Positions 1,774-18,714 of a DNA stretch of 29,148 nt are shown in pieces. Position 1 is the first letter of the stretch. Each line of letters starts with the position of its first letter. The DNA lies in IMG/VR virus record IMGVR_UViG_3300021514_000007, positions 1-29,148 of that record; one strand, written 5' to 3'. Under the pieces are notes generated by a model. That model was not told the origin of the DNA and made no database searches. It was given only the letters and a program-made list of their open reading frames with translations. A program made the position numbers and the translations under genes. Source of the DNA: a virus. Lineage: Duplodnaviria; Caudoviricetes.

Positions 1774-2439
1774 TTATCTAAAATCTGTCTCATCATAGTT
1801 AGACTTTCCTAGATTACAGTCTTGGCATAGTATTTGTAGATTATCTAAATCGAACTGTAATTTAGGGTATTTCGATCTCGGCTTTATGTGGTCAACATGA
1901 ATCTGAACACCGTCTTTTGCTGATGCCCCGCATAACGTACACCTGCCATTTGATTGCTGTAGAGCAACGAACCTTAATTCGCGCCATTTTTTTGACGAAT
2001 AAAACTCATCGGAACTCATATAGTTATATTTATTATGATGGTTTCTACCGGATAAGTTTTTCCAATAATCAATCATCATCATATTGGTGTTTTTATCTGT
2101 GCTTGGTATTTCTGCGCCACATTCATTATGAATACATAAGCAAATACCGATATTTGTAGCAAACTTATGTAATTTAAAATGTTTAATTAATGCTTCTCGA
2201 GCTTTTATCTTGTCTTTTGTTCTTCTTCTTCTGTTACCTCTATTTCCTTTAGGTTTTTTCCTTACTTTAGATTTTATTAAGTTATTTTGGCAAGTCTTAC
2301 AAGGCGGCCTATCTCCTGGATTGTCACCAATAGTATCTAAAAATCTATTATCAGTATCACAATAAGTCGTTTTTGTTATTGGATTAACTATATGAATAAC
2401 TCGATTACGTTTTTTACTATTATAAGCGTATAAGTGCAT
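1774..2439 (-). CDS. HNH endonuclease with N-terminal Cys cluster and basic linker
   Basis: C-terminal FYSSKKWRELR...CTLCG...HVDHIKPRS...NLQILCQDCNLGKSN; GGAG RBS. Confidence 0.9.
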   Translation of the reverse strand: MHLYAYNSKKRNRVIHIVNPITKTTYCDTDNRFLDTIGDNPGDRPPCKTCQNNLIKSKVRKKPKGNRGNRRRRTKDKIKAREALIKHFKLHKFATNIGICLCIHNECGAEIPSTDKNTNMMMIDYWKNLSGRNHHNKYNYMSSDEFYSSKKWRELRFVALQQSNGRCTLCGASAKDGVQIHVDHIKPRSKYPKLQFDLDNLQILCQDCNLGKSNYDETDFR

Positions 2440-5821: not shown

Positions 5822-6001
5822 ATGACTGATAAAGTAAAGGTTCAAGAGCTTGCCTCAGAAGTTCTCAAGCTCGAATATTTATGCTTAGAGGGTGAGCAGG
5901 ATGATCGCAAACTGGAGAAGCAGTTAAAATTTGTGGCTGATTTAGCAAGAAATATGACCTGTGCGCAGTATGACAAATCAGATGACCAAGGGATGTTTTA
6001 G
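5822..6001 (+). CDS. hypothetical protein (59 aa)
   Basis: AAGGTGA RBS, MTDKVKVQELASEV...QGMF*; stop overlaps the MTase GTG. Confidence 0.55.
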   Translation: MTDKVKVQELASEVLKLEYLCLEGEQDDRKLEKQLKFVADLARNMTCAQYDKSDDQGMF

Positions 6002-6984
6002 TGAAGGTTTTGGATCTCTTCAGCGGAATCGGCGGCTTTTCTCTTGGTTTAGAAAGAGCTGGAATGGAAACGGTCGCTTTTTGCGAGATAGAAGAATACC
6101 CTAGAAAAGTATTAGCAAAGCACTGGCCTAATATTCCAATTTATGAGGACGTGAGAAATGTCACAAAAGAACGACTCGATGCAGATGGGGTTCGACCAGA
6201 CGTTATTTGCGGAGGATTCCCCTGCCAGGACCTATCAGTTGCCGGAAACCAAAAAGGCATCACCGCAGAAAGAAGTGGATTATGGTCAGAATTGTGCCGA
6301 ATTATTGGCGAGGTACGACCAAAGTACGCAATCGTGGAAAACGTCACAGCACTCATTAGTGGAGACTCAGGGCGATGGTTTGGCCGAGTTCTTGGAGACT
6401 TGGCCGAGATCGGGTATGACTGCGAATGGCACTGCATATCAGCTTCCGAACTTGGCGCGCACCATCACAGAGATAGGGTCTGGATTATTTGCCACCCCCA
6501 ACACGCTGGACGGGATGCCACCGAAATCAGAGAAAGCAATCAAGCGGGAAATGGAAGTAACCAGGAGGGGGCGAAGCCAACCCGCAAATCTGCGCGACCA
6601 GGTAACACAGAAATATTGGGCAACGCCGAGAAGTTGCAGCGCAATGAGTGCGACATTAACAGAGAAAACGGCAAATCACAGGTTTCCGAACCTAGAGACT
6701 CAGATAGCCCGAACGATATGGCCAACCCCGTCAGTCAGCGACAACAGGGACAGAGGGAATTTATCAAACCCTTGTTTGCAGAGGCGATTAAAAATTGGCA
6801 AGCAATTAATGTTGAGTCAGGTTGTGTCTCTGGAGTCTGGGCAACTGAATCCGAGTTGGGTCGAGTGGCTAATGGGGTTCCCAGAAGAGTGGACCGACTT
6901 AAAGGATTAGGCAATGCTGTTGTTCCTCAAATACCAGAATCAATAGGCAGAGCAATCATGGAGGTAGAAAATGAGCTTCTTTAA
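6001..6984 (+). CDS. C5-cytosine DNA methyltransferase, catalytic (alpha) polypeptide
   Basis: Motifs I FSGIGG, IV GFPCQD, VI ENV, VIII H.RDRVWII, X LGNAVVPQI; motif IX not evident in this frame. Confidence 0.92.
   Translation: MKVLDLFSGIGGFSLGLERAGMETVAFCEIEEYPRKVLAKHWPNIPIYEDVRNVTKERLDADGVRPDVICGGFPCQDLSVAGNQKGITAERSGLWSELCRIIGEVRPKYAIVENVTALISGDSGRWFGRVLGDLAEIGYDCEWHCISASELGAHHHRDRVWIICHPQHAGRDATEIRESNQAGNGSNQEGAKPTRKSARPGNTEILGNAEKLQRNECDINRENGKSQVSEPRDSDSPNDMANPVSQRQQGQREFIKPLFAEAIKNWQAINVESGCVSGVWATESELGRVANGVPRRVDRLKGLGNAVVPQIPESIGRAIMEVENELL
6158..6910 (+). CDS. nested +1-frame MTase partner (beta) polypeptide with motif IX and TRD-like repeats
   Basis: 250-aa ORF wholly inside the MTase; GAGG 9 nt before ATG; ends LNPSWVEWLMGFPEEWT; FATP/WATP/WPTP repeats. 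Confidence 0.75.
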   Translation: MSQKNDSMQMGFDQTLFAEDSPARTYQLPETKKASPQKEVDYGQNCAELLARYDQSTQSWKTSQHSLVETQGDGLAEFLETWPRSGMTANGTAYQLPNLARTITEIGSGLFATPNTLDGMPPKSEKAIKREMEVTRRGRSQPANLRDQVTQKYWATPRSCSAMSATLTEKTANHRFPNLETQIARTIWPTPSVSDNRDRGNLSNPCLQRRLKIGKQLMLSQVVSLESGQLNPSWVEWLMGFPEEWTDLKD

Positions 6985-11833: not shown

Positions 11834-12016
11834 ATGTCGTATATATTAGCAGATGAAAAAAAGCCAATGACCGGAATTGATGTGCATGTGGTTACTGAGG
11901 GCGGAGTTAAAGGTGTTGCTAAGTATTGGGATTTAACTGGCCAATGGATAGCTCAAGATAAAAAGTTAAATCATGGTGATGTTGTAAAGAAATGGAAATA
12001 CGCTAACGCAACATAA
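11834..12016 (+). CDS. hypothetical protein
   Basis: 60 aa, GAGG RBS. Confidence 0.55.
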   Translation: MSYILADEKKPMTGIDVHVVTEGGVKGVAKYWDLTGQWIAQDKKLNHGDVVKKWKYANAT

Positions 12017-12147
12017 TTTATCTAATAGGCAGAAACAATGGAATATTGGCTCATAATCATTTGCTTATGTATTATCGTATTTTATTGTATAAGGGCTTAT
12101 ATAGCTCCTAAGTAAAGAATTAACACAACAACCAAAGGTGAAATAAA

Positions 12148-12456
12148 ATGAAAAACATTACTAAATATGTATTAACCCTTCTTCTAACTATGCCGTTAGC
12201 TTTAAAAGCTGAGAGTTATGTAGCTGTAGAGGCCAATGTAGGCCAAGAATTGTCAATTAATAGCGATCACTGGGAAGGCGAATATCCTGTTGAGCTTAGA
12301 GTGTCTTATGTAAAATCACTTGATAAGCACATATACTTTACAACAGGCTATTCTCATATAAGCAACCTGGCAAATGGCTCACTTATTAATGGCGGCTATG
12401 AAAGCGTACTAGATAGAGTATTTATGGGTATTGGTGTAAAATTTAATATTGAATAA
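12148..12456 (+). CDS. exported protein with outer-membrane beta-strand pattern (PagL-like HxSN)
   Basis: Signal peptide MKNITKYVLTLLLTMPLALKA; GYSHISN; C-terminal FMGIGVKF. Confidence 0.55.
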   Translation: MKNITKYVLTLLLTMPLALKAESYVAVEANVGQELSINSDHWEGEYPVELRVSYVKSLDKHIYFTTGYSHISNLANGSLINGGYESVLDRVFMGIGVKFNIE

Positions 12457-12470
12457 CACGGTAATATAAT

Positions 12471-12896
12471 ATGCCAGCAGGTAGACCATCAGAATATACA
12501 GAGGAAGTGCTAGAGATAGCAAAAGACTACCTTGATAACTTTAGGGATGAGTACGAGCACGCCATCCCTAGTGTTGTCGGTCTAGCTAAAGTCCTTAGAA
12601 AAAGTAGGGAATGTTTATATAACTGGGCTAGGGACGAAGAAAAGAAAGAATTCTCTGACATATTAGAGCAAATCAATTCAGATCAAGAGTTTGTGTTGGT
12701 GAATGGAGGGCTAAACGGCTCACTAAACAGTAATATAACAAAACTTGTTCTTGGCAAGCATGGCTATTCAGATAAAGCAGACACCACCATCGCAAATCCT
12801 GATGGAACTAATATAGCTCCCTCGACCGACATTGAAATAGCGCGTAAACTAGCATTTGTCCTTGATAAAGCATTAAAGGATAAAGAGTCGGAATAA
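12471..12896 (+). CDS. terS: terminase small subunit (P22 gp3-like)
   Basis: MPAGRPSEY, IPSVVGLA..L......LYNW, EFSDILE.I...QE..L.NGGL.G..NS.ITKL.LGKHGYSDK. Confidence 0.85.
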   Translation: MPAGRPSEYTEEVLEIAKDYLDNFRDEYEHAIPSVVGLAKVLRKSRECLYNWARDEEKKEFSDILEQINSDQEFVLVNGGLNGSLNSNITKLVLGKHGYSDKADTTIANPDGTNIAPSTDIEIARKLAFVLDKALKDKESE

Positions 12897-12938
12897 TCCG
12901 GCACTCCATTAGCAACTATAACAAGCAGGAGATTTACC

Positions 12939-13397
12939 ATGGCATTATTTACAAGTGTTCACGGAAAGCGATTAGGTTTAGGCGAGAAAGGTCAATTGGT
13001 GGCAAATAAGATTAACGTATCACAGCCTTGCGTCAATGCAACAATCACAGTCAGCGCAGAAGGGGCTACTACAGCCAATACGCGAGATATTGTTGTTCAA
13101 TTACTCGATGCAGACGGTAACGACATTAACTATGTTGAGACTGTTGAAGTCATTATGTACTTGGATGCGGCTCAAGCTGCATTTGTTGCGACAGGTGGCT
13201 CAACGGGTATTACTATCGGTGCAGCCGGTGACGGTGCTGTTCTTGATGTTGTAGCGAAGAAATATTTCCTTGCAATGTCTGAAGCGGATGGAGATATTGA
13301 CCTTGATTGGTTAGATACTGGTACTGAAGTAGCGTTTCTTGGTATACGTCTACCCAATGGCCGTATCATCGTTTCAGATGCTTTAACTAATACATAA
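12939..13397 (+). CDS. putative virion/structural protein, beta-rich
   Basis: AGGAG RBS; A/G/T/V/D-rich; lies between terS and terL. Confidence 0.65.
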   Translation: MALFTSVHGKRLGLGEKGQLVANKINVSQPCVNATITVSAEGATTANTRDIVVQLLDADGNDINYVETVEVIMYLDAAQAAFVATGGSTGITIGAAGDGAVLDVVAKKYFLAMSEADGDIDLDWLDTGTEVAFLGIRLPNGRIIVSDALTNT

Positions 13398-13543
13398 AGT
13401 TTACAGGTAGCGGCGCTGAAAGTAGAAGCGCAGGAATTATAAGCGCACCGCCGTAGGGGCGGGTAAGCGGGATATTCCCAGACCCCAAAGGCCACGGGGA
13501 GCCAGAGTAACGCCTGGCCTACCTTCTTATTTAAGGGCGGTTA

Positions 13544-16108
13544 ATGTCATCAATATCTGAAATACTCCAAGCCCTTGAAACAATGCCTGACGATAAGAAG
13601 GCAGAACTAGAGGCGCAAGCTAATCAAGCAATAGATTTAAAATGGATACCGAACCCTGGACCTCAAACAGAAGCCTTCTACTGTAAAGCAGATGAATTGT
13701 TCTTCGGAGGATCAGCAGGGGGTGGTAAGTCTGCACTAATAGTAGGTTTATCACAAACAAGCCACGAACGCTCTTTAATCCTTCGCCGTTTCCGTGATGA
13801 TGCAAAAGAGTTGGCTGAAACAGAACTGATTGATAAATCTCTTGATGGTGATCGTAATGGTTGGAATGGTGCTGACCTCATCTACCGCGGAAAAGGACAT
13901 ATTACAACTTTTGGCGGATGTCAGGCTGAAACTGATAAACAGAGATATAAAGGGAAGCCGCACGATTTAAAGTGTGTAGGGGAAGGCACGCCAGTATTAA
14001 TGGGTAATGGATCGTATAAGCCAATTCAAGATATTGCGGCGGGCGATATGGTAGCCACACTGGAGGGAGCTAAGAAAGTAATAAAATCGTTCTTAACTCC
14101 AACTAAAGCAGCCGTTAAGCTGTCCGTATCAATGTTAGACGGAACTATAGTTCACCAGATTCAGTCTGCTTCGCATGAAATTCTAACGCGTACAGGGTGG
14201 GTTGTCCCCGATATGTCATCCGTTTCTTGCCTGGAGCACCAGACGGGCCTTTTATCCAGCGGATTTTGTGTTTCTGACACAACCTCTTCCATATCTTCGT
14301 CCCTGTCTTTGTCAATTTTGCCAGATCTCGATAAGTTAAATGTGTTGGCGCGAAATATCTTGCGACCTCTACAAGCTGCGAAACTAGATCTGGATTGCTT
14401 AACTCAACAGGGGTCACTCTACGGTAAGGTTTTACAAGCTCAGGAAATCTGTTACGAAGAGTTTGATGACAGACTCCAAGCTCATCAGCAGCAAGCCTTA
14501 TTCCCCCAAGTCTCGCTAAAGTTTCTTTCACTAAAGAATCTGGCATTTTCTTCTGACGGGCTAAATTCATCTTTAAAGTATGATGGCTTCGATGTTCAGA
14601 AAAAGTCATTACCTGTAGGTTTTCTGGATCATTGTCGGTTCTTATTTCGTTCCTGTGGTGCACACATTCTCGAATTGACGGGTCTTCGTGCTGTATTAGT
14701 GGTCGGCCAGCAATATCTTCGCCAACCAATCTGTGTTGAGCAACATAGCCCCATCGGTTTGCTAGACGGTGGTGCGGGACGAGCTCCCACACATAACCAC
14801 CATAAATGGTCGTATTGCCACCCTTATACGAAGGAAAAACGTCAAAGTACGGCTCCTCGTTCTTTTTTGTCATATAAAGTTACCCCTGTAAGCAGTAGAA
14901 AGTTGTTTGATCTTGAAGTGGAAGAAGTTAATCATTTTATCACAAAAGGGGGAATAGTAAACAAGAACTGTTTTGATGAGGTGTCTGATTTTCTCGAATC
15001 ACAGTATGAATTCATTATCGCGTGGAACAGAACTACAACCAAAGGTCAGCGATGTCGTGTTGTATCTACCGGAAACCCACCAACAACCGCAGAAGGCCTA
15101 TGGGTTGTAAGACGCTGGGCTGCGTGGCTTGACCCTTCACACCATAATCCTGCCAAATCTGGTGAATTACGATGGTTTACCCGCGATGAAGAAGGCAAAG
15201 AAATAGAAGTCGAAGGTCGTGGCCCACACATTATCGGAGAAAGAGAAGTATTTGCTAAGTCTCGAACATTTATACGAGCAGGGCTATCGGATAATCCTGA
15301 TTTAGCATTAGATGGTCAATATGAGGCAATGCTTTCACAGCTACCAAAGGAATTACGTGATGCTTACCGTGATGGTAAGTTTGATGTAGCCCTGAAAGAT
15401 GGCGCATTTCAAACAATACCAACTAATTGGATCAGAGCAGCACAAGCAAGATGGACTGAAAAACCACCAGAAGGCGTACCAATGTGTGCAATTGGTGTAG
15501 ACGTAGCTCAAGGAGGCGAAGATAATACAGTTTTAGCACCTCGGCATGATGGGTGGTATGCGCCATTTATTACTATACCTGGGAAGCTTACGCCTGATGG
15601 AAAGTCTGTTGCTGGCCTTGTAGTTGCTAATCGACGCGATAATGCAAAAGTTATTATAGATATGGGTGGCGGCTATGGCGGCGCAGCTTATGAACACATG
15701 AAAGATAACAATATTGAAGTTAAAGGCTATAAAGGAGCAGAAGGATATAGTGGGCGCACTTCTGATAGGCAGTTAAAACTATATAATACTCGGTCTGCTG
15801 CTTACTGGAAGTTTAGGGAGGCATTAGATCCATCACAACCAGGCGGCTCCACAATAATGTTGCCTGATGATCCAGAAATGGTAGCTGATTTAACAGCTCC
15901 AACTTACGCTGTAACAAGACAAGGTATTCAAGTTGAGCCGAAGAAAGATGTGGTTAAACGGCTTGGCAGATCTCCTGATATTGGTGACGCTGTTGTTATG
16001 GCTTGGTGGGACGGGCTAAAAGGTGCTAATATACAAGGGGGCTTCAAGAAGAGAAATACTGCGCCTGTTGTTGTAATGAGCAAAAGAGCAAGGATTAGAA
16101 AAAGATGA
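13544..16108 (+). CDS. terL: terminase large subunit precursor containing an intein
   Basis: PNPGPQ, Walker A GGSAGGGKS, Walker B DLK^CFDE split by the insert, TGNP, nuclease GVDVAQGGED and RSPDIGDA. Confidence 0.95.
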   Translation: MSSISEILQALETMPDDKKAELEAQANQAIDLKWIPNPGPQTEAFYCKADELFFGGSAGGGKSALIVGLSQTSHERSLILRRFRDDAKELAETELIDKSLDGDRNGWNGADLIYRGKGHITTFGGCQAETDKQRYKGKPHDLKCVGEGTPVLMGNGSYKPIQDIAAGDMVATLEGAKKVIKSFLTPTKAAVKLSVSMLDGTIVHQIQSASHEILTRTGWVVPDMSSVSCLEHQTGLLSSGFCVSDTTSSISSSLSLSILPDLDKLNVLARNILRPLQAAKLDLDCLTQQGSLYGKVLQAQEICYEEFDDRLQAHQQQALFPQVSLKFLSLKNLAFSSDGLNSSLKYDGFDVQKKSLPVGFLDHCRFLFRSCGAHILELTGLRAVLVVGQQYLRQPICVEQHSPIGLLDGGAGRAPTHNHHKWSYCHPYTKEKRQSTAPRSFLSYKVTPVSSRKLFDLEVEEVNHFITKGGIVNKNCFDEVSDFLESQYEFIIAWNRTTTKGQRCRVVSTGNPPTTAEGLWVVRRWAAWLDPSHHNPAKSGELRWFTRDEEGKEIEVEGRGPHIIGEREVFAKSRTFIRAGLSDNPDLALDGQYEAMLSQLPKELRDAYRDGKFDVALKDGAFQTIPTNWIRAAQARWTEKPPEGVPMCAIGVDVAQGGEDNTVLAPRHDGWYAPFITIPGKLTPDGKSVAGLVVANRRDNAKVIIDMGGGYGGAAYEHMKDNNIEVKGYKGAEGYSGRTSDRQLKLYNTRSAAYWKFREALDPSQPGGSTIMLPDDPEMVADLTAPTYAVTRQGIQVEPKKDVVKRLGRSPDIGDAVVMAWWDGLKGANIQGGFKKRNTAPVVVMSKRARIRKR
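14145..14873 (-). CDS. HNH homing endonuclease encoded antisense inside the intein
   Basis: GYV....P.H..AN..GYVAQHRLV.E...GRPL...E.VHHRNE.RTDN.PENL......EH..HH, then HTH-like GGIRLAADELGVCHQTLRNRF; AGGGG upstream of ATG. Confidence 0.9.
   Translation of the reverse strand: MTKKNEEPYFDVFPSYKGGNTTIYGGYVWELVPHHRLANRWGYVAQHRLVGEDIAGRPLIQHEDPSIRECVHHRNEIRTDNDPENLQVMTFSEHRSHHTLKMNLARQKKMPDSLVKETLARLGGIRLAADELGVCHQTLRNRFPELVKPYRRVTPVELSNPDLVSQLVEVARYFAPTHLTYRDLAKLTKTGTKIWKRLCQKHKIRWIKGPSGAPGKKRMTYRGQPTLYALEFHAKQTESGEL
14934..14961 (-). promoter_or_regulatory. candidate antisense promoter for the intein-internal HNH
   Basis: Minus strand TTTACT(14961-56)-N16-TAAAAT(14939-34) with TG extension, 60 nt upstream of the HNH ATG. 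Confidence 0.45.
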
Positions 16109-16272
16109 CCATATTAGGTAAGCGTCCAAAGATTCCAATTCCAGAAATTGAGCCCCCTGCTCCTCTTGTCGATGAAGAGAAGCTAAAAATGGCACGAAAG
16201 AAAAACATATCTAAACAGCGCAGCCGTTCAGGCCGCACATCAACAATATTATCAGATGAGGGGTTAGGATAA
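16105..16272 (+). CDS. small virion-associated protein (55 aa), SGR.STIL motif
   Basis: MTILGKRPKIPIP...SGRTSTILSDEGLG*; ATGA overlap with terL and TAATG with the next gene. Confidence 0.7.
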   Translation: MTILGKRPKIPIPEIEPPAPLVDEEKLKMARKKNISKQRSRSGRTSTILSDEGLG

Positions 16273-16631
16273 TGGGACGACCATTTTCAAGCGGAAGACT
16301 TGGCGGGCCAAAAGTAAAAAAATATGGCACTGTCTTAACGGATTACGATAAAGCGCGTGAACCTTTGCGGGAATCCAATCTTAGAGCCGAACAGAGAGAA
16401 AAAGAGAGAAAGGCTAAAGGCGGCGGCTTTAGAAGGTATGACGAAGAAGATCTTGACAAGATAAAAACCCAAAATGAGGCTGCACTTAAAGCTAACCTTA
16501 TTATTCCAACTACAACACCAACATTATTAGCGGACGAAACCGCTATAACAAAGAAGAAGAGAAAGAAAATATCATCAGACCGACTTACAAGCGGTAGAAT
16601 GTCGACTATTCTCGGCGATACGTTAGGATGA
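16272..16631 (+). CDS. small virion-associated protein, SGR.STIL motif
   Basis: C-terminus SGRMSTILGDTLG* parallels the preceding ORF; lies just before the portal module. Confidence 0.7.
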   Translation: MGRPFSSGRLGGPKVKKYGTVLTDYDKAREPLRESNLRAEQREKERKAKGGGFRRYDEEDLDKIKTQNEAALKANLIIPTTTPTLLADETAITKKKRKKISSDRLTSGRMSTILGDTLG

Positions 16632-17089
16632 GAACGGTGCAAGAAAGGTTTGATAGTAAGGTTGAGCGGATACCAGAAGGCGGCTGTCATGTTTGGATGG
16701 GTGGCTTGCTAGCCTCTGGCGGTTATGGCGTGTTTATGGCAAACAAAGTGTCACATAGAGCGCATAGATTCTCATGGATACAAGCTAATGGAGAGATACC
16801 CAAAGGCATGTTCATACTGCATAGTTGTGATAACCCATGCTGTGTTAATCCTGACCATTTATCGGTAGGAACACATCAAGATAATATGGACGACATGGTC
16901 AAAAAAGGCCGACAGAATCCTGCTCGCGGCACAAAACATTCGTCACACAAGCTAACAGAAAAGCAAGTTCGGGCTATCCGAGCTAGCTCTGTTTCAAGCA
17001 GAAAACTTGGTGCTGAATATGGTGTAAGTAAAACGCTTATCAATCACATTAAAACCAAAAGTAAAAAGGGATGGGGTTGGCTAGAATGA
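16628..17089 (+). CDS. HNH homing endonuclease (Zn-binding loop type) with C-terminal HTH
   Basis: GCHVWMG...GYG...AHRFSW....GEIP....LHSCDNPCCVNPDHL..GT..DNM.DM..KGR; ATGA-coupled on both sides. Confidence 0.9.
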   Translation: MRTVQERFDSKVERIPEGGCHVWMGGLLASGGYGVFMANKVSHRAHRFSWIQANGEIPKGMFILHSCDNPCCVNPDHLSVGTHQDNMDDMVKKGRQNPARGTKHSSHKLTEKQVRAIRASSVSSRKLGAEYGVSKTLINHIKTKSKKGWGWLE

Positions 17090-18714
17090 AAATCAAGGCA
17101 TTGAAGGACAGAGGGGAGCAATTATTTAATAAACGGCATGGCTTACTTTCCTTATGGCAAGAAATCGCTTCAAACTTCTACCCAGAACGAGCCGACTTCA
17201 CCAACATAAGAAACATCGGTGATGATATGGCGGGTCATTTAATGACAAGCTCCCCTGCGATTGCGCGTCGAGATCTAGGTAATGCCTTTAGTTCGATGTT
17301 AAGACCTACCGCAAAAGAGTGGTTTCATGTTGGTACTAGCCGACCTGACACGCAAGATACCGAAGCAAAGCAATGGTTAGAATGGGCAACAAAACTCACT
17401 AGAAACGCCATGTATGACCGACCTGCTCAATTTAATCGAGCGACAAAGGAAGGCGATCATGATTTCGCTGCCTTTGGTCAATGCGTTATCTCAACAGAGC
17501 TCAACTTAAAAACAAACACACTACTATACCGCTCATGGCATTTGCGTGATGTGGCATGGGTAGAAGACGAGGCTGGTGAAGCATCTACTGTTTATCGTAA
17601 GTGGAAGCCTACTGCGATTGACCTTAAGACGATGTTTGGCAATAAAATCCATGAGAAGGTTGCTAAAAAACTATCAAAGACCCCGTATGATGAAATAAAC
17701 GTATGGCATATCGTAATGCCAACAGAGGCTTATCAAGACGTTGAAAGCTCAAAGAAGATTAACCAGCCTTTTGTTTCTATTTATATTGATGTGGATAACG
17801 AACATATCATTGAAGAAGTGGGTCAGTGGGTGAATATGTACACTATCCCACGTTGGGCGACTGTTTCAGGCTCACAATATGCTCACTCCCCCGCGACCGT
17901 TACTGCTTTAGGTGATGCACGACTCATCCAGACAATGACTTCTACTATCCTGGAAGCAGGAGAAAAAGCGGTTAATCCTCCGTTATTAGCAATTCAAGAA
18001 GCTATCCGTAGTGATGTTAGTGTTTATGCTGGTGGTATTACGTGGGTAGATGCTGATTACGATGAGAGACTAGGCGAAGTATTACGCCCAATGACGCAAG
18101 ATAAGTCAGGGCTTAATTTTGGCCTTGATGTGAATGAGAGCATTAAAGAACAAATCTTCGAGGCTTTCTTTCTTAATAAGCTCAATCTACCGCCTACAGG
18201 TGGACCAGACATGACCGCTTACGAGGTTGGTCAACGAGTACAAGAATATATCCGAAACGCCCTACCTTTATTTGAGCCTATGGAAGCCGATTATAACGGC
18301 AGATTGTGTGAGAACACCTTTGACATCATGCTTCGCGCCGGTGCTTACGGCGACCCACGCAACATACCTAAGTCAATTCAAGGTGCAGATATACGATTTA
18401 CCTTTGAGTCTCCATTACACGAAGCGTCTGAGAAAGCAAAAGTTGGTCAATTCATGGAAGCCCAACAAATTCTTGCTCAAGCTATTAATCTTGATCCCTC
18501 TACCGCACTTATTATTGACGGTAAGAAAGCGACTCGTGATGTATTGGAAGCAGTCGCTCCGGCTGACTGGCTAAATACTGAAAGTGATGTAGACGCGATG
18601 ATTGCTCAACAGCAACAAGAGCAAGAAACCCAACAGATGCTCGACCAAATGGCTCAAGGCGCAACGATTGCGAAGGATTTAGGTCAATCTAATATGGATG
18701 AAATGCCTGCGTGA
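17086..18714 (+). CDS. portal (head-tail connector), T7/BPP-1-like
   Basis: About 542 aa; W.EIA..FYP, IPRW...G..Y..SP, MTAYEV.QR.QE; ATG at 17086 is coupled to the HNH stop. Confidence 0.9.
   Translation: MKIKALKDRGEQLFNKRHGLLSLWQEIASNFYPERADFTNIRNIGDDMAGHLMTSSPAIARRDLGNAFSSMLRPTAKEWFHVGTSRPDTQDTEAKQWLEWATKLTRNAMYDRPAQFNRATKEGDHDFAAFGQCVISTELNLKTNTLLYRSWHLRDVAWVEDEAGEASTVYRKWKPTAIDLKTMFGNKIHEKVAKKLSKTPYDEINVWHIVMPTEAYQDVESSKKINQPFVSIYIDVDNEHIIEEVGQWVNMYTIPRWATVSGSQYAHSPATVTALGDARLIQTMTSTILEAGEKAVNPPLLAIQEAIRSDVSVYAGGITWVDADYDERLGEVLRPMTQDKSGLNFGLDVNESIKEQIFEAFFLNKLNLPPTGGPDMTAYEVGQRVQEYIRNALPLFEPMEADYNGRLCENTFDIMLRAGAYGDPRNIPKSIQGADIRFTFESPLHEASEKAKVGQFMEAQQILAQAINLDPSTALIIDGKKATRDVLEAVAPADWLNTESDVDAMIAQQQQEQETQQMLDQMAQGATIAKDLGQSNMDEMPA

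Follow-up and report, generated by a model that had tools for sequence, protein, structure and literature searches.

The gene for the large terminase subunit (TerL) of an uncultured virus (Duplodnaviria; Caudoviricetes) is interrupted just before the Walker B motif by a predicted intein, and the strand opposite the interior of that intein carries an apparently intact HNH endonuclease gene. The window analysed here comprises 29,148 nucleotides, positions 1 to 29,148 of IMG/VR record IMGVR_UViG_3300021514_000007. As judged by comparison with related loci, both reading frames are open, selection is split between them, start signals for the nuclease gene are conserved, and there has been recent transfer between terminase alleles. 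By the same comparisons the feature is real, selected and mobile, and its layout is conserved in dozens of uncultured phages. The reading as a whole, a terminase intein with an antisense HNH gene, a hidden promoter and nicking-driven homing, is one that we hold with good confidence. An initial interpretation made without database searches (the sequence-only reading) had already proposed a two-strand, two-protein element, and the open TerL frame and the purifying selection on the HNH gene bear it out.

The predicted intein

The TerL frame encodes a precursor of 854 amino acids, from which removal of a 332-residue insert leaves a terminase of 522 residues (854-332). The insert (13973-14968) starts with Cys, contains a SASH motif with His68, ends in KN and is followed by Cys; its coordinates, ends and residues agree with those of the sequence-only reading. 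Profile searches of both strands, a check which that reading had suggested, returned weak intein matches on the plus strand (Hint PF05203, E 2.7e-4, below the cut-off; TIGR01443, 16.7 bits against a cut-off of 15.6, whole protein) and HNH_3 on the minus strand. Cys1, His68, the HPY motif, Asp313 and the terminal Asn (N332) are invariant in an alignment of 32 family inteins, and HPY is also present in the mini-inteins seen. A Cys occupies the +1 position in 55 of 55 distinct intein ends, 22 of which came from a search pattern requiring it. The residues of a class 1 intein (Cys1, block B His, block F Asp, terminal Asn and +1 Cys) are all in place.

AlphaFold gives a confident prediction for residues 1-80 and 279-332, with a predicted local distance difference test score (pLDDT) of 88-98 over residues 1-80, and the insert at residues 89-270 scores mostly below 50. 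The best Foldseek matches are inteins (gp41-1, MchDnaB-1 and PI-SceI, E 2.6e-4 to 8.4e-4). Motifs and model agree in identifying the insert as an intein, and the precursor likely gives the 522-residue terminase by protein splicing, the general steps of which are set out in passages of PMC5874633. TerL inteins of mycobacteriophages have been shown to splice and to cut empty alleles, according to sections of PMC5050341. No Pfam, PHROG or NCBIfam nuclease family matches the TerL frame, so this is not a canonical bifunctional intein; the sequence-only reading, too, had seen no LAGLIDADG or HNH motifs between blocks B and F in that frame.

It is very improbable that the insert is instead removed from the RNA, as a group I-like intron with an antisense HNH gene, or that the terminase functions as two pieces that stay unspliced. 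I-HmuI-like nucleases are a known feature of group I introns (parts of PMC2988022). A search for a ribozyme core gave no Rfam match at E<=1 in 12000-17000, which by itself leaves room for an intron; an open TerL frame, however, would be needless for one, and the invariance of Cys1, His68, Asp313, the terminal Asn and the +1 Cys, together with the predicted Hint fold, argues for protein splicing.

A nuclease gene on the opposite strand

The minus strand (14873-14145) was described in the sequence-only reading as encoding a 242-residue HNH protein with a helix-turn-helix-like (HTH-like) tail. Supporting this, the open reading frame (ORF) scores 26.2 bits against HNH_3 (PF13392; cut-off 24.8) and matches eight PHROG HNH families, and its structural model contains two HTH-like units. 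A search of viral contigs with the single HNH protein found no relatives, an alignment being needed to find them; 116 homologues were collected, and H72, H73, N81, N85 and H94 are invariant in 43 aligned homologues. The model has a pLDDT of 88.5, and its best structural match is I-HmuI (1u3e), with a root-mean-square deviation of 2.6 over 76 residues and a Z score of 6.9, in the range that the comparison tool calls ambiguous. The HNH profile found nothing below E 0.33 among PDB sequences. Judged by its sequence and model, the antisense gene is a maintained nuclease with an intact beta-beta-alpha-metal motif and fold, and by analogy with I-HmuI it is likely to nick DNA.

Two overlapping frames under divided selection

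The HNH ORF lies opposite intein codons 58-301. Its 3' end overlaps block B, as the sequence-only reading had noticed, and its 5' end overlaps the folded C-terminal splicing part at residues 279-301, which that reading had missed. The two frames share their first codon positions, and the HNH wobble base is therefore the second base of a TerL codon.

Both frames are free of stops in the window. Across the HNH gene the TerL frame would be expected to contain 9.6 stops under synonymous shuffling and 12.0 under codon shuffling, close to the roughly 11 estimated earlier, and neither kind of shuffling gave a stop-free frame in 200 trials. A full-length HNH match was obtained at 44 loci (counting the window contig and duplicates), all of which sit in a TerL intein before Walker B, share the same antisense phase and have 0 stops in the best-matching segment. 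After removal of 10 duplicates and the frameshifted locus L109, the 33 distinct inteins have 0 TerL-frame stops across the HNH gene, against 248.7 expected from synonymous and 329.4 from codon shuffling. In these 33, Phe before a codon starting with A, a combination that would force a stop, never occurs (36.3 expected), and Ile before A is encoded by ATA in 59 of 59 cases, compared with 62 of 279 elsewhere.

Distant HNH loci served as a control: 57 of 71 distinct loci (79 rows minus 8 duplicates) carry 1-10 stops in that antisense phase. The remaining 14 are open, each within a long host frame that has intein-like ends; seven are members of the Walker B intein family and seven are inteins at the P-loop. 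Six P-loop loci labelled Walker A, and L119 with them, do not match the N-terminal Hint profile of the Walker B family.

The ratio of nonsynonymous to synonymous substitution rates (dN/dS), another check raised by the sequence-only reading, also separates the two frames. It is 0.09-0.24 for the HNH frame in the five of eight pairs with estimable dS, and third codon positions of that frame vary most in all eight. For the TerL-frame insert the apparent ratio is 1.3-3.4 in eight pairs, as expected of a shadow. These comparisons support a division of selection: purifying selection acts on the HNH frame, and the TerL-frame insert stays open for no other purpose than to let its junk translation be spliced away.

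It is scarcely credible, on this evidence, that the minus-strand ORF is a gene in decay or a product of faulty assembly. The frameshift in its relative L109 would fit such a view; dN/dS of about 0.1-0.2, invariant catalytic residues and identical contigs in separate assemblies all speak against it. A Logan contig from run X1, possibly the source of the record, spans 12400-17200 with 0 differences and 0 gaps, and a contig from run X2, of another study, covers the 3' intein junction (14877-15112) with 0 differences. Both runs are labelled hydrothermal vent metagenome.

Distribution, mini-inteins and origin

At E<=1e-30, a profile search recovered 198 cluster representatives. Loci were sought with a degenerate intein-end pattern, since the intein alignment varied too much to serve as a seed. 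Sorting of 173 related proteins gave 149 with an antisense shadow, 6 mini-inteins and 18 unclassified; an in-frame HNH was found in none of the 173 with the HNH profile, the only one applied (LAGLIDADG was not profiled). Within the reach of that one profile, these proteins lend no support to an origin in which an in-frame HNH was inverted. The intein has no match in cultured phages, and the HNH has only partial domain matches there (32 records, none covering 80%).

Empty, mini and antisense-HNH forms of related TerL alleles, for which the sequence-only reading had recommended a search, were all found. That reading had also proposed that a free-standing HNH invaded a mini-intein. Its first half, capture of the nuclease gene, is plausible; the mini-intein as recipient is a conjecture. 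At least two of the minis seen (P0133 and P0138) appear to be deletion products that lost the HNH, since inspection by eye suggests that traces of the antisense gene persist in them. In a tree of the HNH domain (116 rows, 85 columns), 45 Walker B HNHs, that of the window included, group together with support 98, and 10 others are placed, without support, among free-standing ones. The likely origin, in one event or several, is the capture of a free-standing phage HNH gene in antisense orientation.

Related designs occur at the P-loop. Terminase-like inteins at that site (L028, L030, L050, L061, L073, L079 and L119) have an antisense HNH in the same relative phase and a Hint N-terminus that differs from that of the Walker B family, which suggests a separate origin of the same design. 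Some terminases contain two inteins: P0123, P0141 and L163 combine a Walker A intein with a full or mini intein of the Walker B family, the Walker A intein of P0123 and P0141 having a LAGLIDADG Pfam match. Long ORFs in L008, L082, L088 and L123 were likewise noted with two-intein terminases.

Start signals for the nuclease gene

A sigma70-like promoter stands at a fixed position across the family, within the last codons of the intein. Its -35 and -10 elements match the consensus at 9 of 12 positions in the window and at 9.54 on average in 48 inteins. When amino acids were held fixed and codons redrawn from Hint-codon usage, the mean was 9.05 +/- 0.13, and 0 of 2000 draws reached 9.54. A first null, based on extein codon usage, was rejected as too lenient, inteins being more AT-rich at third positions. 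The A at -11 is present in 39 of 48 inteins (27.2 +/- 3.3 expected), and in 41 of 50 full inteins as against 0 of 4 minis (Fisher p 0.002); the full intein L164, which duplicates a truncated row, was left out. An ATG stands at a fixed place in 43 of the 50 full inteins and in none of the 4 minis, and 30 of these 43 have a Shine-Dalgarno-like word, a count for which no null was computed. The HNH is likely made as a separate protein from this promoter hidden in the intein's last codons.

The promoter-like sequence could also be a by-product of conserved splicing residues, with the HNH arising from read-through antisense transcription or barely expressed, and the remaining model would stand. Amino acids alone supply 9.05 of the 12 matches, neighbouring third positions are AT-biased too, and minis still score 7-9. 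This explanation, unlikely as we judge it, deserves to be taken seriously; it is countered by the excess of -11A, by an ACA codon that gives a T at -17 in 23 of 48 inteins, by the loss of -11A and ATG in 4 of 4 minis, and by complete 12 of 12 sites in L006, L089, L122 and L153.

Mobility and the insertion site

Seventeen distinct relatives are empty alleles that run straight through the insertion site. The inteins of L005 and L108 differ at 3 of 951 bases (99.7% identical), whereas identity drops to 84.4% and 76.9% in the flanks, where the first mismatches lie 13 bases upstream and 12 bases downstream of the intein. A near-identical intein in diverged flanks supports recent homing. In a quick extein tree, the window's TerL is sister to the empty L124, which has Gly at +1, with a Shimodaira-Hasegawa-like approximate likelihood ratio test value (SH-aLRT) of 99, and well-supported branches force at least four gains or losses. 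Homing is thus supported both by the near-identical intein in diverged terminases and by the patchy distribution.

The intein-free target with a +1 Cys that the sequence-only reading gave proves to be reconstructed: among natural empty alleles, the closest one carries Gly, and Cys is found in only 2 of the 17 (L133 and L142). Since Cys is rare at this position, the element may either select alleles with Cys or convert the codon on entry. Among 52 inteins with a located start, the start lies 2, 3, 4 and 5 residues before the Walker B acid in 43, 3, 1 and 5 cases, respectively, and extein spacing is constant, which points to one lineage at four adjacent codons. Nine loci (L006, L099, L122, L148, L150, L152, L153, L176 and L177) hold this lineage one to three codons upstream of the usual site, always with Cys following the intein. 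Among protein matches of the family, Ser or Thr is also seen at +1.

Another possibility is that the HNH is a free-standing selfish gene that shelters in the intein and cuts elsewhere, the intein being carried along passively or moved by ordinary recombination. Outside inteins, related HNH domains are often found (57 of the 71 distant loci; 32 phage records), the +1 Cys is missing in 15 of 17 empty alleles, and four adjacent insertion codons differ from what a strict homing site predicts. We nevertheless give this account a slim chance, as 33 of 33 full-length HNH relatives are inside the Walker B intein and the tract transferred between L005 and L108 stops within 13 bases of both intein edges.

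Weighing the evidence

Several observations weigh against the combined reading of intein, antisense nuclease, hidden promoter and homing. The evidence is computational throughout, with splicing, transcription and cutting predicted from sequence and models. The penultimate intein residue here is Lys instead of His, and none of the 55 ends has His (K37, R11, Q4, S2, G1), 22 of these ends having come from a pattern that requires K/R-type codons at this position; class 1 inteins that lack this His and yet splice are described in passages of PMC5050341. For the HNH model, the ambiguous Z score is joined by a Foldseek search in which I-HmuI appeared only at E 0.98 and nothing matched at E<=0.001. 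Two relatives have defects in their assembled sequences. In L109, which is near-identical to L083, a 5-base deletion in the overlap breaks both frames. L169 lacks block A (about 27 residues including Cys1) and keeps an open frame and an intact antisense HNH, a loss that may be a deletion or an assembly error.

The promoter and the case for homing have weaknesses of their own. Taken alone, the window promoter is not above chance (2 found, 1.8 expected), amino acids supply most of the match, the excess is modest, 9 of 50 full inteins lack -11A, and the statistics come from related sequences with only 4 minis. The pattern seen in L005 and L108 could stem from a chimeric assembly. The correlation between extein and HNH identities (Spearman 0.67) implies that inheritance is in large part vertical or between close relatives; in this comparison, the value of 100% for the exteins of L087 and L176 is an end-gap artefact.

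Proposed mechanism

Under the model that we favour, the TerL mRNA would yield the 854-residue precursor, which would be spliced into the 522-residue terminase, presumably without a penultimate His, and the Hint domain and its disordered loop would be discarded. An antisense transcript from the hidden promoter would give the HNH, which would nick intein-free terL near Walker B, as I-HmuI and Mob enzymes do. Repair of the nicked gene would then copy the whole element in, with co-conversion of the +1 codon to Cys where the recipient has none. Deletion of the HNH would leave mini-inteins that have lost the promoter base and the start codon.

A bolder version, tentative and in our estimate somewhat short of an even chance, treats the element as triple-coded. 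The last 45 bases of the intein would encode catalytic blocks F and G and also provide the antisense nuclease with a consensus sigma70 promoter; the HPY strand of Hint would double as the nuclease N-terminus. The N-H-Y-I-T and N-K-N ending without penultimate His would have been shaped by the promoter, and a tolerant nickase that brings its own +1 Cys would let the lineage enter terminases lacking the nucleophile and slide over four codons.

Genomic surroundings

TerL is flanked by a gp3 protein resembling the small terminase subunit (TerS; 12471-12896) and by a head-tail connector (17071-18714), in a podovirus-like packaging and head module that comprises a gp3-type small terminase, TerL, head-tail connector, capsid and tail tubular proteins. 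The gap between TerS and TerL holds a 152-residue ORF (12939-13397, plus strand) without a Pfam or PHROG match. A separate free-standing HNH gene (1774-2439, minus strand; PF01844, NinG-like) belongs to a Pfam family different from that of the intein HNH.

Elsewhere, an ORF for a C5 DNA methyltransferase (6001-6984, plus strand) is covered by PF00145 over residues 1-184 only. Nested in it in another frame is a 250-residue ORF (6158-6910, plus strand) that matches phrog_1008, 'DNA methyltransferase', at E 8e-27 and ends in an apparent motif IX. The two nested ORFs resemble the two-polypeptide arrangement of M.EcoHK31I, a parallel for which a literature search gave no confirmation.

Table 1. Features of the terL locus and of the overlapping HNH gene in the window.
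Feature	Position	Strand	Remark
TerL precursor, 854 amino acids	13544..16108	+	phrog_2 E 2e-22, phrog_979 E 1e-17
N-extein	13544-13972	+	
Predicted intein, 332 amino acids, class 1 type	13973..14968	+	two codons before Walker B Asp
N-terminal splicing (Hint) half: Cys1, block A, block B	13973..14212	+	
Block B His68	14174-14176	+	
Unstructured 'shadow' insert, residues 89-270, TerL frame	14237..14782	+	
C-terminal splicing half: HPY strand, block F Asp313, NHFIT, block G ending N-K-N	14807..14968	+	
+1 Cys and Walker B (C-F-D-E)	14969..14980	+	
C-extein	14969-16108	+	
Predicted HNH endonuclease gene, 242 amino acids: I-HmuI-like nuclease domain and two HTH-like units	14145..14873	-	
HNH catalytic motif (His72, His73, Asn81, Asn85, His94, His98)	14580..14669	-	
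Sigma70-like promoter (TTTACT, 16 nucleotides, TG-extended TAAAAT) in block F/G codons	14934..14961	-	
Shine-Dalgarno-like AGGGGT, 8 nucleotides before HNH ATG	14882..14887	-	
Weak terminator-like stem after HNH stop, uncertain	14109..14122	-	1 found, 1.2 expected

Relation to known systems

The sequence-only reading, made without access to the literature, knew of no described example of such a layout, yet published ones exist. Sections of a preprint by Gosselin, Arsenault and Gogarten (bioRxiv 10.1101/2025.01.02.630785) report on inteins in which a LAGLIDADG or a VSR-like nuclease is encoded anti-sense, many of these inteins being in terminases, propose the same invasion of inteins by free-standing nucleases, and cite Gorbalenya 1998 and Gogarten 2002 for cases in Synechocystis DnaX and a Chloroflexus SpoVR-like protein. 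Shared with those inteins, as far as these sections go, are the nuclease ORF on the opposite strand of a contiguous intein, an in-frame interior that folds into nothing, hosts among large terminase subunits, the invasion model and signs of continued transfer. In contrast, the nuclease here is an I-HmuI-like HNH, outside the four classes in those sections, where the HNH class is in frame; the word 'promoter' is nowhere in the preprint's main text; and the TerL antisense-HNH family is large, as its cluster representatives attest, and absent from cultured phages. No antisense HNH intein was found in the literature searched, which covered subscription journals thinly and excluded the supplements of that preprint. 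The two-strand intein layout is already published, and the window's element is an HNH variant of the antisense-nuclease inteins; what it adds lies in the promoter embedded in the intein, in the HNH gene's overlap with splicing residues that are folded, and in an insertion site that slides.

Other systems share parts of the design. The mycobacteriophage TerL inteins in sections of PMC5050341 have the ATPase domain as host, a Walker B site (TerL1-e), class 1 residues and variants without the penultimate His in common with the present one. In them, as in in-frame HNH inteins, the nuclease is part of the intein polypeptide, whereas here the opposite strand carries it as a separate gene. The nickases of the I-HmuI and Mob type (PDB 1u3e; parts of PMC2988022), which provide the best structural match, share the HNH_3 motif and a C-terminal DNA-binding region; they are intron-encoded or free-standing, unlike the present enzyme with its two HTH-like units, encoded antisense in an intein. 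The ShiLan insertion in phage methylases (passages of PMC11855218) also hides an HNH ORF in a different frame, leaves the host frame uninterrupted and apparently homes, but its HNH is on the same strand and it has no detectable splicing domain.

Implications

The antisense-nuclease intein, regarded as a rare form, is what a large family in uncultured phages normally has. Such inteins would be labelled as decayed in annotation, because their in-frame interior looks like junk. The family also offers a natural system for the evolution of overlapping genes, in which one frame is selected only against stops and the other for protein function, probably with a promoter laid over catalytic codons as well. 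The expression route of an antisense intein nuclease, left open in the published description, becomes testable, as does homing by a nicking enzyme into sites that lack the +1 nucleophile.

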